16,740 nucleotides of DNA from a virus (Duplodnaviria; Heunggongvirae; Uroviricota; Caudoviricetes). This document shows positions 4,835 through 13,126 of the stretch, in pieces. The stretch's first letter is position 1, and every line of letters begins with the position of its first letter. The translations under genes were made by a program, and so were the position numbers. The stretch lies in the IMG/VR virus record IMGVR_UViG_3300031867_000033, positions 64,344 through 81,083 of that record; one strand, written 5' to 3'. The notes under the pieces were generated by a model. That model ran no database searches. It was not told the origin of the DNA and worked only from the letters and a program-made list of their open reading frames with translations.

Positions 4835-4913
4835 TACAATGCACCGCCTGTCCAAAAATTTGGACTCGCGGCGCGTTGTAAAAGAAAGCGCCACGGATGA
4901 TACCGCGGCGCAA
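4835..4913. repeat. Cluster of GC-rich GCGCCGC-motif copies forming two imperfect hairpins
   Basis: Inverted repeat TACAATGCACCGCCTGTCCA / TGGACTCGCGGCGCGTTGTA (4835-4880), then GCGCCACGG-ATGATA-CCGCGGCGC. The 18-mer GGATGATACCGCGGCGCA (4895-4912) is identical to 11577-11594. Confidence 0.65.
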
Positions 4914-4920
4914 TATAGAA

Positions 4921-5100
4921 TTAAAATTCTAGGTATCCAGCATTTATAGTAATTGCAGAATCGTTTTTCCTTTCAAATTCTTCCTTTGTAATAAACTCAA
5001 CTAAAGCTTCCGAAGGAATAACGATTTCATTTCCTCTTTGTTCGACACTCTCCGAAGTGATTCTAAAATATCTTCCTTCTGCTTCAAAACACAGTGTCAT
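4921..5100 (-). CDS. Hypothetical protein (59 aa), missed by the ORF track
   Basis: ATG directly follows the TAA of the GIY-YIG gene. MTLCFEAEGRYFRITSESVEQRGNEIVIPSEALVEFITKEEFERKNDSAITINAGYLEF; ends TAA. Confidence 0.6.
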   Translation of the reverse strand: MTLCFEAEGRYFRITSESVEQRGNEIVIPSEALVEFITKEEFERKNDSAITINAGYLEF

Positions 5101-6201
5101 TTAACTCCCTCCTTTGGTTCCATTATAACCCCAGTTCTAAGAATCATAGAACTCAATAAAATACTTTTCTTTTTCATTAAGCTCTTCTGGCTTACAAGTA
5201 GTAATAACTTCAAAAGTAAAATTCTCTGGCCCCGTCTCCCACATTTCCTCATATAACTTATTTCTAGTTGCTGGTTCTGCACGAACTCCTCTACGAACAT
5301 GAGCTCGCCATCTTTCAGAAAACTTTTGTTTAGTCTATCCAATATAGGACTTTCCATTTTGAATGTTCGTTATCTTATAAATTCCTACTCCTTGCGCATC
5401 TGTTGACACAACACGACCAATCATTTGAGAAAAAGGATTTTTATAATAATTCTCCCATATTAATTTATAAAGAATTGTTGGGGAATTTAATGTTTCTGCG
5501 ACTTTTCTTAATTTCTATATATCTTCCCTATCTTGTTCTTTAAGCTAAATTTTATAAAATTCCACTTGCTACTTCTTTTCCTCATCTGCTTTAAAACGAG
5601 CAATAATTTCTTTTTGTTTTTCCTCATAAGCTTTAATTTCTTTATCTAAAGCCTCCTTTTTTAAATTAATGCTCGTATTATAGTTAAAAAAATCTGTATC
5701 AAGTTCCTCCTTCTTCTCCTTATAATCTCCCTAAATTGCATTAAGAAAGCTCTAAAACCTAGCCTATTCCTCTAAAATTTTCGCCGTATTCTCTGCTTCT
5801 CTTTCACGTTGCGCCGCAGTATCAAGCTCCTTATAATGTTCAAGCCTTTCTTCAAACTATTCCTAAGATTGCTTAATTCGTGCATCAATAGTTCTTTGAA
5901 AATCTTTTTCCTACTAATTTAAAGCTTCAAGTTTTCTTTTTGTTTCTCCTTCTTCAAACTAAATCTATTCCTTTGCTGCAACTCTATAATTTTCAACTTC
6001 TTCTTCTATTTCTTCTTTTATTTCTTTTTCATATGCATTTTTCTTAGCTTTGATCTAACCCATAGCTTCAAGTTCAGCAATATTAAACTAATTAATATCA
6101 AACTAATGCTTTTTATGATAATGATCTGCAAGAGTCAAAATAATATTAACCGCTGAATAGATAAAGAGTAGAATATAGCTTATAATAAAAAATATATTCA
6201 T
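5101..6201 (-). CDS. Membrane-anchored coiled-coil protein with C-terminal GIY-YIG nuclease domain (366 aa); code 15
   Basis: GGAGG RBS; hydrophobic N terminus (NIFFIISYILLFIYSAVNIILTL); long E/K/Q-rich coiled coil; then GIYKITNIQNGKSYIGQT...ERWRAH...LNEKEKYFIEFYDSQNWGYN. About 17 in-frame TAG, including the Q of YIGQT. Confidence 0.85.
5809..5825 (+). repeat. Dispersed 17-bp motif copy (TTGCGCCGCAGTATCAA), intragenic
   Basis: Matches consensus YT(G/T)CGCCGC-NN-YAYCAW; lies inside the GIY-YIG gene. Confidence 0.7.
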
Positions 6202-8420: not shown

Positions 8421-8993
8421 TTAAAATTCCTCCATTCCTTTAAAAAAAATTTCATCATCAATTAATCTTGGTACTTCTGTATAATCAACCGGGTAAAAAT
8501 CCCAAGTAGATAAGCTTAAATTCAGAATCTAATCTCTATAAATTTCGCCTTCTTTTAGAAGCTAATTCTCTATTGCAGCACTTTCTGCCATAGCAATATA
8601 ATTTCTTTCACCAAGCCAAAGCTAAATATTAGAAGAATTAGTTGCAATTATAACATTTGCTTTTTCTCCATTAATTGTTCCTACAACAAAACCATCAAGA
8701 GAACGCGCTCTCTAAGCTCCCATATCTTTCCAAAAATCTTCAATTTTATAAAGCGGCTAATCTTCTAAATCAACAATTTCCCATTTTGCTTTGATTTGAG
8801 ACATTAAACTTTTAGTTGATTCAAAATCACCAACACTTGTTTCCCCAAAAACTATTAAGTAGTCATCTTCTTCAACTATTAAATTAATTCTATCAATAAC
8901 CATTTGATTATATTCCTAAATTGTCATTTTCTAATGTTGCGCCGCGACACCATCAAACAATTTCATATCTGCCGCAATAAAAGTCTTATCCAA
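8421..8993 (-). CDS. Degenerate calcineurin-like metallophosphoesterase homolog (190 aa); code 15
   Basis: GGAGGGAGG RBS, TTG start. FIAADMKLF, EYNQMVIDRINLIVEEDDYLIVFGE and LNLSLSTWDFYPVDY follow the spacing of small phage phosphoesterases (xFTSDxH, EMNExLIxxWNxxVxxxDxVYxLGD, NVGVDxWxYxPV), but metal ligands are changed. 7 TAG; ends TAA. Confidence 0.65.
8937..8953 (+). repeat. Dispersed 17-bp motif copy (TTGCGCCGCGACACCAT), intragenic
   Basis: Matches consensus. 8941-8957 is also the exact reverse complement of 16582-16598 in the endolysin gene. Confidence 0.7.
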
Positions 8994-9075: not shown

Positions 9076-10017
9076 TTATCTCTCATTTAATATAGAACGA
9101 ATAATCTCCATTGTTATACTTCCAGAGAACTTTCCAAAACCTTCAATTGAAAAAACTGCCTCTGGCTCTTCCTTTCTTATGTCTTCAAATACAAGCTTTG
9201 GTATAGTCTTGCTTATCTCCTTCATATTAGTCTCATCCCAATCAATAGGAAGCTGACCCTCGTCAATAAGCTTTAATATAATCTTTTCTATACGCTGACG
9301 CGTCGCAAACTGAGCAACATAGGCTCTTGCTTCTTCTCTCTTCTTCAACTCTTCAGGGTCAATAGGCTTTTTAGCTCCTTTATGAACCTCTCCAAACTGC
9401 TCATTAACGATTTTTATATACTTAGGGCGGCGAGAATTCTCCTTATCTTCAAGTCTATCTTGCGTTTTGATGACAATTCCTTCCTCAGCTGGTTGCCCAC
9501 CAAGTGTCTTTAACTTCATAAGTTCCATTAAGTCTTCCCAAGAGTTAAACTTCCCATCATAAAGAACAGGAACGAAGTTTATTTCAATATTAAACTTTTC
9601 CGCCACTAAGAGTAGCTTCCCAAAAATTATCCAAGCATCGTGATAGGAAATATAGCATTCCTTCTCGCGATCGTAGACATCGAACATATAAAACTTATTA
9701 TACGCAGTATCTGGATACTTAACCGCGTGTGGAACTAGCCACTCACCGAACACAAGGTAGCGTCCAAATTCCGTAATCTCTTTTATATCTTCCAGAGAAA
9801 ACTTTTGTGTCCACTCCCAAAAACCACGAAGATTATTAGTTTCACTTAGTCTTGTCTTACGAGAAAAGGCAGCAATTGAATCCGTTTCTACGTCATAGGT
9901 AAAGCTCCCATTTGCGCCATCTAACTTGCTTTGCGCCACGATATGTTCACCAACATCAAACATCTCACTATATTTCGCCTTTAATCTGGATATATCAACG
10001 TAATGCTTCATTTCCAT
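9076..10017 (-). CDS. RNA ligase, Rnl2-like nucleotidyltransferase (313 aa)
   Basis: Motif I QSKLDGAN, FSRK, III FGEW, IIIa FDV, FVPVLYDG, IV EEGIVIK, V KIVNEQFGE, and a helical C-terminal domain. No TAG in 8 Gln codons. Confidence 0.85.
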   Translation of the reverse strand: MEMKHYVDISRLKAKYSEMFDVGEHIVAQSKLDGANGSFTYDVETDSIAAFSRKTRLSETNNLRGFWEWTQKFSLEDIKEITEFGRYLVFGEWLVPHAVKYPDTAYNKFYMFDVYDREKECYISYHDAWIIFGKLLLVAEKFNIEINFVPVLYDGKFNSWEDLMELMKLKTLGGQPAEEGIVIKTQDRLEDKENSRRPKYIKIVNEQFGEVHKGAKKPIDPEELKKREEARAYVAQFATRQRIEKIILKLIDEGQLPIDWDETNMKEISKTIPKLVFEDIRKEEPEAVFSIEGFGKFSGSITMEIIRSILNER

Positions 10018-10031
10018 TAATTTTTTCTCCT

Positions 10032-10244
10032 TTATATTAACTTGCCTTCAAACTCACATTTACAGGTTATACTATCAACATTAGTTGGATAATGCCAATC
10101 ATCAATAACTCTTCCACAACAAGGACATTTATAATAATTGCAGCAGTCTTTATCACTGTAGCCTAATGGAATCCAAGTCATATTCTTTTCAAAATCTTTA
10201 AGATAGGCTTTATCTTTATATCGTTTTGTATGAATATAAAACAT
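10032..10244 (-). CDS. Small Cys-rich (zinc-ribbon-like) protein (70 aa)
   Basis: YKCPCCG...ITCKCE; GAAAGG RBS; first gene after the class A promoter. Confidence 0.7.
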   Translation of the reverse strand: MFYIHTKRYKDKAYLKDFEKNMTWIPLGYSDKDCCNYYKCPCCGRVIDDWHYPTNVDSITCKCEFEGKLI

Positions 10245-10263: not shown

Positions 10264-10312
10264 TATTTTCTATAATAATTATATAATAAATTTTTTAAAA
10301 TTGCAAATATTT
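10264..10312 (-). repeat. 49-bp promoter repeat, copy 1 (TTGCAA-17-TATAAT plus leader TATTATAGAAAATA)
   Basis: Base-for-base identical to 11390-11438. -35 at 10301-10306, -10 at 10278-10283. Confidence 0.9.
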
Positions 10313-10332
10313 AAAAGATTTTTAAATCTACG

Positions 10333-10374
10333 TTGCGCCGCCATATCATAAACCTTGCTTCGCCGCACCATCAA
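10333..10374 (+). repeat. Tandem pair of GC-rich motif copies (TTGCGCCGCCATATCAT at 10333-10349; CTTCGCCGCACCATCAA at 10358-10374)
   Basis: Same 25-bp spacing and arrangement as the pair at 11444-11460 / 11469-11485. Confidence 0.75.
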
Positions 10375-10462
10375 CCTTAGCCTGTACTACGATATGCTCG
10401 CCCACATCAAACATTTCATTATACTTAGCCTTAAGTCTTGATATATCTACATATTTATTCAT
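10346..10462 (-). pseudogene. Truncated 5' copy of the RNA ligase gene (38 aa)
   Basis: GAAAGGAG RBS; MNKYVDISRLKAKYNEMFDVGEHIVVQAKVDGAAKQGL. 26/30 residues identical to the ligase N terminus (YVDISRLKAKYSEMFDVGEHIVAQSKLDGA); homology ends just after motif I. Confidence 0.85.
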
Positions 10463-10482
10463 TTATTAAAGCTCCTTTCAAC

Positions 10483-10833
10483 TTATCTTCGTCCATAAGC
10501 GAATCTATCTTCGTAGGATTCAAGGTTTATCCACTCATTATTTCTTTTAAAATAATCTTTTATAAATTCATCTATATAATGCTGATCCATATCAATATTA
10601 TGAACATCTACCATTATAATCTTTATATTAGGATTATCAACCGATGAATTAAGAAAATTATATATCTCGCTAGTATTATCAGAATATTCCAATACTACAC
10701 CTATTAGAGCATCATTATCTTCCACTTCATCCTTTATTGATGCTCTATAATCGTCCATTGCAAAACTACCGATGCCTCTTCTCCCATTATCATTTATATC
10801 ATCTTTTATTTTTCTATACAAAAATCCCTGCAT
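10483..10833 (-). CDS. Hypothetical acidic protein (116 aa)
   Basis: AAGGAGG RBS; no TAG; ends TAA. Confidence 0.72.
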   Translation of the reverse strand: MQGFLYRKIKDDINDNGRRGIGSFAMDDYRASIKDEVEDNDALIGVVLEYSDNTSEIYNFLNSSVDNPNIKIIMVDVHNIDMDQHYIDEFIKDYFKRNNEWINLESYEDRFAYGRR

Positions 10834-10844
10834 ATGAACCTCCT

Positions 10845-11372
10845 TTAAATTCTATTCATTAAATCACAACATTTTTCTTTAGTTTCAATTCTATATTCCT
10901 CTTTAAAAAGAGAATCAATAATATTATTTACTTCTTCGTGAGACTTCTTAAAAATAGCGACGAATAAAGGAAATAAGTCTCTTATATCACTAAAAAGACA
11001 ATAATATTCTCCATTATAAGAGAATGAAGAAGTATAACCTATTTGTTCAAATAAAAACGTCCAACCATTTGGACTAATACCAGCTCCTTCTTCGTTTAAT
11101 ATTTGGTTTTTAAGATATGTTAAAGAATGATTATTCTTTTCTCGTTCCTCAATCGCCCTATCCATATTATCAAAATCTTCTTTTGTTGAAGAACGAACAA
11201 ATTCCAACTGATTATCATGCCACCAAGCACTAGTTCCACCACTTTTAAGGAAACGAAGTTCATAGCCAGAAGAAACTTCGATAATTACAGCAAGTTGTCC
11301 TATACTAGGATCTGTCTTTTCATTCCAAAAACCTTTAATTACTTTTACGACATCTCCCATTTTATATTTCAT
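10845..11372 (-). CDS. Hypothetical protein with N-terminal SH3/KOW-like beta segment (about 175 aa)
   Basis: Likely start MKYKMGDVVKV at 11372 after the AGAAGGT RBS (track start 11390 is in frame); no TAG. Confidence 0.72.
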   Translation of the reverse strand: MKYKMGDVVKVIKGFWNEKTDPSIGQLAVIIEVSSGYELRFLKSGGTSAWWHDNQLEFVRSSTKEDFDNMDRAIEEREKNNHSLTYLKNQILNEEGAGISPNGWTFLFEQIGYTSSFSYNGEYYCLFSDIRDLFPLFVAIFKKSHEEVNNIIDSLFKEEYRIETKEKCCDLMNRI

Positions 11373-11438: not shown

Positions 11439-11443
11439 TTATA

Positions 11444-11595
11444 CTGCGCCGCGGTACCATAAGACTTACTTCGCCGCGCTACCAAACTTTTAGACACATC
11501 TATTAGAAATTCTACATTAAGAAAATTTCAAAGGGCGCCGGCACATTATAGATAAAGCATCATAAAATAAAGGTATGGATGATACCGCGGCGCAT
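11444..11595. repeat. 152-bp element bounded by inverted copies of the GC-rich motif, at the divergent transcription point
   Basis: TGCGCCGCGGTACCAT (11445-11460) and ATGATACCGCGGCGCA (11579-11594) are reverse complements at 15/16 positions. Internal partial copies at 11469-11485 and near 11535. Confidence 0.75.
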
Positions 11596-11716
11596 TGTAG
11601 ATTTTAAACAAAATTTTAAAAGTAAATTTGTTTAAAACGTAGATTTTCTTTTTCTTATTAATTTTCTTTTAAAATAAAACTTTTAAATTCCCAACTTTAA
11701 AAACGAGGTGATTAAA

Positions 11717-11944
11717 ATGTATAGTTATAAAGAGTATAATGAACCAATTCAAATTTTAATTAAGTTAATGCATAGAGATTATCCTAATGGATTTGAGTTA
11801 AGAATCAATGGATTTGGTGCAGAATTGGTTAATAATCAAATGGTTCATACTTATATGAATGATGAAATAATGAAAGAATATTGTAGTGGTGGAAACTTAT
11901 CAATGGAAGAAATAATGAGTAATTTAAAAGATATGGGTTATTAA
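11717..11944 (+). CDS. Hypothetical protein, paralog 1 of a tandem pair (75 aa)
   Basis: GAGGTG RBS then ATG at 11717; 24/40 N-terminal residues identical to the next gene. Confidence 0.8.
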   Translation: MYSYKEYNEPIQILIKLMHRDYPNGFELRINGFGAELVNNQMVHTYMNDEIMKEYCSGGNLSMEEIMSNLKDMGY

Positions 11945-11981
11945 ATATTTTAAATCTTAGTTTAAAATGAGGCGATGTGTA

Positions 11982-12206
11982 ATGCATACATATGAAGAAT
12001 ATAATAAACCAATTCAAGAACTTATTAAAATTATGGAAAATGACTATCCTCATGATTTTATATTAGAGATAGGTAGTTTTGGAGCGGAATTAAAATCAAA
12101 TATTAGCGTTAGAACTTTTTTAAAAGATAATAATAGATTAGAGAATAATATAGATTGGATTGGACTTTTAAAAAAGGTTTTCAATGAGAATGAGAAAGAC
12201 AGTTGA
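11982..12206 (+). CDS. Hypothetical protein, paralog 2 of a tandem pair (74 aa)
   Basis: GAGG RBS then ATG at 11982; MHTYEEYNKPIQELIKIMENDYPHDFILEIGSFGAEL. Confidence 0.8.
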   Translation: MHTYEEYNKPIQELIKIMENDYPHDFILEIGSFGAELKSNISVRTFLKDNNRLENNIDWIGLLKKVFNENEKDS

Positions 12207-12230: not shown

Positions 12231-12331
12231 ATTCTTCTGAACTAATAATTATCTGTCTTTCACAGTTTTTTTCAGTGATTCAATAAATTATTCGATATAC
12301 ATTATTATATAAAAAGCTAATGATTAATTTC

Positions 12332-13126
12332 TCACTGATAATAGAAATAATTTTGGTTGCCATCTCCCCACCAAGAGTTAGCTTCATCGAAATCATAAGG
12401 ATTAGCCAAATAATAATTAACTGCATCATAACATTCCTGCGTAGGTGCACAATTTCCCGGCCAATAACCAGTAAACTGTCCAGGTGCAATCAATACATCA
12501 TAAACCGTATTCGGGAATCTTGAGTCGTAAACTCTATTCATTACTGCGGCAGCAATATGAGCCTTATCATAAAGACTAATCCAGTCACTTCCAGCTTCAT
12601 GCCAAACTATTTCTGCAAGCAACTGGTATGAATAATTATCAATTTCAATATTTGGGTTTTCATCAATAAATTCTGTAGTGGTTGTTGTCTCTTCAATTGG
12701 TTTTTCTACGACAATCCAGGATGATGTCTCTTCTATATCACTCACAGGTGCATCAATCTTTATCTGAGAAGTAATTGCCTCTGAAGCTTTTGTAGTAGTA
12801 GTTATGGTAGGATCTATATTAGAACTATCAACATCAATGTTAGTTTCAACAGGAATTTTATAAGTATTGTCTCCCTTTTTATCCTCAATCGAAATTAAAT
12901 TCTCTACTGAACTAGTCTCTATTATAAGTTCAAATGAAGTATCATCTGATATACTAGATTCATCTATATTTGTATTTGAACTTTCCACCTCCGTTGTGGC
13001 TTCTATTATAGAATTTAAGGGTGATACAGAACTAGTGCTTCTATGATATGTCGCTGGTTTAGTTCCACAACTTACAAGTGCCGTGGCACAGAATAGAGAT
13101 AAAAATATAGTCTTTAAATTCTTCAT
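12332..13126 (-). CDS. Lipoprotein with Ser/Thr/Glu-rich linker and C-terminal SleB-like cell-wall hydrolase (Hydrolase_2) domain
   Basis: Signal peptide with lipobox LVSC (Cys20); LLAEIVWHEAG, AAAVMNRV, FPNTVYDVLIAPGQF. No TAG. Confidence 0.85.
   Translation of the reverse strand: MKNLKTIFLSLFCATALVSCGTKPATYHRSTSSVSPLNSIIEATTEVESSNTNIDESSISDDTSFELIIETSSVENLISIEDKKGDNTYKIPVETNIDVDSSNIDPTITTTTKASEAITSQIKIDAPVSDIEETSSWIVVEKPIEETTTTTEFIDENPNIEIDNYSYQLLAEIVWHEAGSDWISLYDKAHIAAAVMNRVYDSRFPNTVYDVLIAPGQFTGYWPGNCAPTQECYDAVNYYLANPYDFDEANSWWGDGNQNYFYYQ

Follow-up and report, generated by a model that had tools for sequence, protein, structure and literature searches.

Why does a phage genome that encodes a complete RNA ligase also carry, upstream of that gene, a 38-aa open reading frame (ORF) that begins like the ligase and then breaks off in a repeated GC-rich motif? 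The original prediction was that a module of promoter, small gene and ligase had recombined in from a relative at the motif, leaving the resident gene as a stub, or alternatively that the stub is a maintained peptide. The window analyzed here, a stretch of 16,740 nucleotides, is the last 16.7 kb of a linear 81,083-bp IMG/VR record (31% GC; CheckV completeness 49%). Its genes lie on the minus strand, save for a small plus-strand pair at 11675-11826 and 11942-12091. These two, the only plus-strand genes noticed in this part of the window, are tandem paralogs of 74-75 aa with 70% DNA identity, and are also found in the related contigs L004, L005 and L008.

Many genes of the phage contain in-frame TAG codons, at which aligned relatives show TAG or, as the commonest sense codon, a codon for Gln, and a tRNA with a CUA anticodon is encoded at genome positions 53442-53518, outside the window. 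Taken together, the alignments and the tRNA indicate a stop-codon-recoded phage that reads TAG as Gln. Since the stub ends in TGA, the recoding leaves its length unchanged. There are 7 TAG codons in the 190-aa gene that follows the ligase (8421-8993, minus strand) and 17 in a 366-aa gene (5101-6201, minus strand), the counterpart of which is annotated as GIY-YIG in relatives, while the genes for the ligase, ThyX and DNA ligase have none. A nucleotide search of deposited phages with the locus gave no match, and a protein search among them found relatives only ~34% identical, in phages of Bacillus, Staphylococcus and Listeria. The nearest counterparts of the ligase are in SPO1-like phages of Firmicutes, and the phage itself is not T4-like. 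A pattern scan of IMG/VR for ligase relatives yielded one distant locus, and a protein search of metagenome contigs yielded ligases 80-91% identical. The 81-kb record, 49% complete according to CheckV, yielded neither a tyrosine recombinase nor a Y1 transposase.

The stub (10346-10462, minus strand) consists of 38 codons and a TGA stop. Codons 1-33 are the 5' end of an RNA ligase allele of the L004 type and retain the motif I lysine (KVDGA), whereas codons 34-38 and the stop are derived from a cassette containing the GC motif, the frame exiting the ligase at codon 34. The ribosome-binding site, GAAAGGAG (10472-10479, minus strand), is the same in L004 and was inherited from the ligase allele. 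A six-frame search of the genome picks up the stub with an E value of 1.2e-12; its residues 4-33 are identical to residues 6-35 of the complete ligase at 26 of 30 positions, and the DNA is 75% identical over 100 nt. Approximately 16.5 of 18 synonymous sites differ between the two. Synonymous sites are thus saturated, and the stub is not a fresh duplicate, in agreement with the original prediction, which had described an ORF with its own ribosome-binding site that matches the ligase N terminus and is a diverged allele rather than a recent tandem copy. The similarity breaks off after GAT GGT GC, at the GCGGCG core at 10361-10366, so that the predicted end of homology directly after motif I does fall inside a copy of the GC motif.

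The further elements expected downstream, namely a second motif copy, a 49-bp promoter, a zinc-ribbon gene and a complete ligase, are each present. The zinc-ribbon-like gene (10032-10244, minus strand; 70 aa, with CxxC/CxC) has no family match and accompanies the ligase in most relatives. The complete Rnl2-type RNA ligase (9076-10017, minus strand; 313 aa) belongs to a second lineage. It is matched by Pfam RNA_ligase PF09414 over residues 25-200 (E 9e-21) and by PHROG 548 (E 3e-50), with a weak match to T4 Rnl2 (E 7e-4), and has motif I (KxDGxN) as SKLDGAN near its N terminus. While the full gene is thus a member of the T4 Rnl2-type ligases (PF09414, PHROG 548), the Rnl2 catalytic domain (motifs I, III, IV and V) is incomplete in the stub, which keeps the N terminus and is ligase-derived only up to motif I (AKVDGA). 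Lacking every nucleotidyltransferase motif past motif I, the stub cannot be an enzyme.

Among the relatives, ligase N termini are of two types, MNKYVD as in the stub and MEMKHYVD as in the full gene of the window. An uninterrupted ligase at the stub start, which had been predicted to exist in relatives, is found in L004, where the 175-aa gene and the 116-aa gene are followed, after 20 nt, by a ligase gene starting exactly at the position of the stub start. In L005 a 305-aa gene is located directly upstream of the ligase, between the 116-aa gene and the ligase; in L008 the 305-aa gene also precedes the ligase but follows the zinc-ribbon gene, and the 116-aa gene is missing. A promoter, the zinc-ribbon gene and the ligase are found downstream of a 250-aa or 281-aa gene in L006, L007, L080-L087 and L088-L092. 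The stub itself was found in no relative.

In the window, the segment that ends in the stub, of L004/L005 type and referred to here as resident, begins with the 175-aa gene (10845-11372, minus strand) and continues with the 116-aa gene (10483-10833, minus strand). By BLASTN, positions 12231-10365 are 90.5% identical to L004, in a match that covers the first 98 nt of the L004 ligase and ends at the GC core. Codons 1-33 of the stub differ from those of the L004 ligase at 7 of 99 nt (93% identical; dS 0.24, dN 0.04), which matches the divergence of the flanking 116-aa gene from L004 (dS 0.21, dN 0.04). The equal divergence implies that the two are collinear in ancestry; judged from these alignments, the stub is the continuation of the L004-type segment. 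On the other side, positions 10312-5099 are 95.6% identical to L079, which likewise has the promoter, the zinc-ribbon gene and the ligase, in a match that begins at the promoter, and from the promoter on the window is 84-88% identical to L006, L083 and L088, while its full ligase is only ~75% identical to that of L004. Lineage affinity changes four times in 1.3 kb: at a GC core, the 3' end of the upstream promoter copy (P1), the ligase/cassette joint and the 5' edge of the downstream copy (P2).

The joint is illegitimate and lies at 10364-10367 (minus strand), where the ligase sequence ending in GATGGTGC is fused to GGCGAAG of a first motif copy, the crossover point being ambiguous within GC/G. 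Only the right half of this copy, GCGGCGAAG (10358-10366, minus strand), is present according to the alignments. A second copy (10333-10349, minus strand; core GCGGCGC at 10335-10341) provides the TGA of the stub through its TTATGATA part, and is followed by a long spacer with a small AT hairpin (10313-10332, minus strand). The two direct motif copies fold no better than shuffled sequences (z +1.1). An origin of the motif pair from the ligase itself was considered and rejected, the local alignment score not exceeding that of shuffles (p 0.21).

Promoter copy P2 follows at 10264-10312 (minus strand), with a -35 TTGCAA at 10306-10301 and a -10 TATAAT at 10283-10278. Copy P1 (11390-11438, minus strand), 1126 nt away, is identical to it at 49 of 49 positions. 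Both contain TTGCAA-17-TATAAT, a predicted sigma-70-type promoter by sequence match, and both are of the type located upstream of the zinc-ribbon gene in relatives; they bracket a unit made up of the 175-aa gene, the 116-aa gene, the stub and the cassette. Upstream of P1, a motif pair (11440-11490, minus strand) is L004-like up to the core of its second copy and then continues with the short spacer of the zinc-ribbon type.

The 54 nt between joint and promoter (10366-10313) comprise the half motif copy, the second copy 25 nt later and the long spacer, and are identical at 47 positions, with no gaps, to the cassette that L005 has ahead of its 175-aa gene, L004 being next best. Other promoter-upstream modules of the phage's own genome match far less well. 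In 15 of 15 relatives, the module upstream of the zinc-ribbon gene differs from the joint: its two motif copies are separated by a spacer of 37 nt, and the spacer preceding the promoter is short. It follows from the 47/54 match that the module at the joint is orthologous to the L005/L004 cassette, that is, to the cassette of the stub's own lineage, which sits ~1.1 kb upstream of ligase codon 33. The layout P1, 175-aa gene, 116-aa gene, ligase codons 1-33, cassette and P2 is a circular permutation of the L004-type order, and, by the alignments, the switch of lineage lies at the 5' edge of the promoter (10312/10313) and not at the GC core. The proposal that a module had recombined in from a relative therefore stands in so far as a module of promoter, zinc-ribbon gene and ligase does exist behind other upstream genes. 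Its entry at the motif does not: the motif pair and spacer (10366-10313) belong to the resident lineage, and the joint at the GC core appears to close a resident segment that was copied in tandem or as a circle.

We consider it most probable (approximately 0.6) that the stub is the dead 5' remnant of an L004-type ligase, that the joint closes a copy of the resident segment, in tandem or as a circle, and that a promoter exchange came later. The joint would have formed by illegitimate, microhomology-guided recombination between two sites of one lineage: the motif I DNA of the ligase, CTAAGGTTGATGGTGC, and, ~1.1 kb upstream, a sequence, CTAAAAGTTTGATAGCGC, in the first of the GC-motif copies in the terminator/promoter-type cassette ahead of the 175-aa gene. 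The 16 nt to the left of the cassette core agree with the motif I site at 11 positions, and this site tied for the best when ~1920 positions of the L004 segment, all downstream of the cassette, were compared, so the joint formed where chance similarity is highest, as short-homology illegitimate recombination would predict. An exchange of this kind, between sister genomes or within one genome, would yield a head-to-tail duplication or a small circle with the cassette, the promoter, the 175-aa gene, the 116-aa gene and the ligase 5' end as its unit. Homologous exchange at the promoter could then have joined the unit to the zinc-ribbon gene and the complete ligase of the second lineage.

The sequences themselves show the joint, the affinities to two lineages, the orthology of the joint cassette, the microhomology and the identical promoters; the order of the steps, a duplicated or circular intermediate and the lack of function of the 38-aa product are what we infer. 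Several points count against the account. The present mosaic of resident cassette, zinc-ribbon-type spacer and P1, resident unit and zinc-ribbon-type P2 needs at least three exchanges or conversions, and a single promoter crossover would not leave both promoter copies of the zinc-ribbon type without a later conversion. No tandem copy or circle of the unit was found among the relatives, and a donor could have carried a module type that has not been sampled.

Such a donor is the core of a simpler explanation, in which the first motif copy of the incoming module itself joined ligase codon 33 and everything downstream was replaced in one step. The donor would be a co-infecting relative with a motif pair, promoter, zinc-ribbon gene and ligase. 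A single event then suffices, the closest relatives differ between the left and right flanks as they should, and the donor-type module of L088 likewise begins with GCGGCGAAGC. However, the donor must have had a close motif pair and a long spacer, a combination found in 0 of the 15 sampled modules upstream of zinc-ribbon genes, and an unsampled module of this kind is possible. The cassette at the joint is also most like the L005/L004 module of the 175-aa gene (47/54), as against scores of ~12 for zinc-ribbon-type modules, and the left flank of the L088 type agrees with motif I at only ~9 of 17 positions, by eye in a hand alignment, fewer than the 11 of 16 of the resident cassette. We regard replacement in one step as unlikely on this evidence, yet as the strongest competitor of a closed resident segment.

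Within the preferred reading of a tandem or circular resident copy, it is a tentative and rather improbable further suggestion that the 1.1-kb unit between the identical promoters is an integrated mini-circle like those formed by the promoter-early stem-loop (PeSL) cassettes of T4-type phages, excised via the GC motif, and that it may still circulate free. The only hints of a circle are the permuted layout and the identity of the two promoters on either side. If this is true, a TAG-recoded phage with no relation to T4 would have, in its GC-motif/promoter cassettes, an active system for shuffling genes, and the motif might also be a preferred site of breakage or template switching. In any case the locus is a concrete candidate for a mini-circle intermediate.

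It is also conceivable, with a low probability, that the integrated order is a choice made by the assembler at the 49-bp repeat, and that the real genome has the cassette, promoter, zinc-ribbon gene and ligase in succession, the unit being a free mini-circle or a tandem array. A swap of paths at the repeat does restore the layouts of both groups of relatives (long spacer with 175-aa gene, short spacer with zinc-ribbon gene), and PeSL mini-circles have been documented (PMC2839356). The exact 38-aa product, including the five codons past the joint, is encoded in two further assemblies. One of these is a 1137-bp Logan contig that spans the unit and breaks within both promoter copies, 30 nt into each of P1 and P2, which is where an assembly with k=31 should end in a repeat of 49 bp. 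The other, a 98-kb ENA contig, has the same gene order as the IMG/VR record, so that the integrated order is found in two long contigs (81 kb and 98 kb), and assemblers of the kind behind the sister contigs (names beginning k119_ and k141_) probably work with k-mers of more than 49 nt, long enough to bridge the repeat. Moreover, the parental sequences share no k-mer at the ligase/cassette joint; the assembler therefore cannot have invented it, and the joint must exist in real DNA. The exact 18-mer across the joint is absent from viral contigs. A 19-mer had 69 hits in metagenome contigs, 50 of them with more than 40% GC, and the 18 low-GC ones checked by BLAST gave no match to the locus.

It is very improbable that the 38-aa ORF encodes a small protein that is being maintained, such as a regulator or decoy derived from the ligase. 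In favor of this, its ribosome-binding site and start codon are intact, no terminator separates it from the 116-aa gene, and the dN/dS that the original prediction had called for is 0.16 against L004, an estimate without power as it rests on only 7 differences. Against it, this ratio equals that of the flanking DNA and so mostly reflects history before the truncation, the 90% cluster of the stub has one member, and only motif I of the nucleotidyltransferase fold is present. In addition, a search of 5.8 billion proteins with residues 1-45 of the L004 ligase gave only two short proteins similar to the ligase N terminus, the stub and an unrelated truncation. The most likely state of the stub, as read from its sequence, is that of a transcribed, possibly translated, functionless remnant, and annotators should label the 38-aa ORF a remnant of the ligase rather than a gene. 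The second short protein, P0139 on L094, is an independent truncation by a different insert: at L094:755-940, codons 1-45 are those of a ligase and are followed by unrelated sequence with an ORF on the opposite strand. The L094 break is not at a GC motif, and the upstream region L094:1-600, moderate in GC, looks structured.

Within a consensus of ~22 nt, the 81-kb record has 47 copies of the core GCGGCGC, found in both orientations; in the window, the motif 9-mer with at most one mismatch has 12 hits against 0.49 expected. Elsewhere in IMG/VR, the full 22-mer was found in one contig, a distant relative (L009). The element occurs in single copies, in direct pairs, or in inverted pairs, the last forming predicted terminators, the inverted copies away from the joint giving strong hairpins followed by T runs (e.g. 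window 4850-4930, z -4.4). Copies antisense to the genes, represented in the window at 4868-4913 and 11579-11595, are mostly located 5-60 nt past stop codons, and 13 of 21 have a partner arm. Eight of 20 intergenic antisense copies lie at most 10 nt from the stop, five of them at exactly 10 nt, a spacing that suggests a fixed stop-to-hairpin architecture. Sense copies are found upstream of gene starts, some immediately before the conserved promoter, a module that recurs ~30 times in the genome. Of 26 sense copies, only 6 have a strict promoter match within 60 nt.

A full GC motif is also found within a gene, at 8933-8955 (minus strand), ~16 codons into the 190-aa gene (8421-8993), where it encodes the peptide FDGVAAQH and is conserved in 5 of 5 aligned relatives. 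Other in-gene copies (window 5811; genome 34450) share the frame and read D-x-x-A-A-Q. The positions of these copies suggest a role at the DNA or RNA level that is tolerated inside genes.

The broader claim that the motif is a recombination junction is weakly borne out. Homology ends within 30 nt of a GC core in 11 of 76 cases, compared with ~5% for random positions in one sequence, the 76 ends coming from comparison of the genome with four relatives and being non-independent, as the same events are counted repeatedly and intergenic position confounds the count. Clear motif-linked borders are at 10365, 10312, 11578 and 4881, and the 250-aa and 281-aa gene contexts meet the common module at a hairpin arm. 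On the other hand, several indels have no motif at the border; the indel of the 305-aa gene lacks one, and so do the borders at 12231-12334.

Short-homology (illegitimate) recombination generates mosaicism in phages and leaves gene remnants behind. The locus resembles such cases in having a joint at a chance similarity (11/16), a truncated gene and flanks with different closest relatives, and differs from typical ones in that a repeated regulatory cassette was one of the partners and the layout of the product is circularly permuted. It shows base by base how a phage gene gets truncated and replaced. On the preferred account of a closed resident copy followed by promoter exchange, a conserved enzyme motif that happened to resemble a repeated regulatory cassette would have been enough to seed an illegitimate joint, and the identical promoters would have done the rest.

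In T4-type phages, a PeSL cassette pairs a sigma-70 promoter with a stem-loop; such cassettes mark the borders of indels and form mini-circles (Arbiol et al. 2010, PMC2839356; see also Comeau et al. 2014, PMC4122927). Here too, a hyperplastic region has many near-identical sigma-70-type promoters between its small genes, each adjoining a GC-rich stem-loop or terminator element; at some of these cassettes, genes have been gained, lost or replaced between related phages, and a unit flanked by two identical cassette copies is the expected outcome of mini-circle integration or of unequal exchange. Unlike in the PeSL systems, the phage is not T4-like and reads TAG as Gln, the GC element is a conserved half-site of ~22 nt with few sense copies near a strict promoter (6/26), and the joint is illegitimate and within a gene instead of a homologous exchange between two cassettes. 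The cassettes may thus be called functionally PeSL-like by analogy only. The locus is a well-resolved recombination scar at such a PeSL-like cassette, a fresh example of known and ordinary gene shuffling in phages, and would extend PeSL-style modular shuffling from T4-like phages to an uncultured, stop-codon-recoded lineage.

The ligase genes of L004, L005 and L008 are mosaic themselves (e.g. L004:6001-6936). The first 300 nt of the L004 and L005 ligase genes are 70-80% identical and the remainder 90-97%, while the pattern is reversed between L005 and L008; these opposite patterns point to an intragenic exchange point near nt 300.
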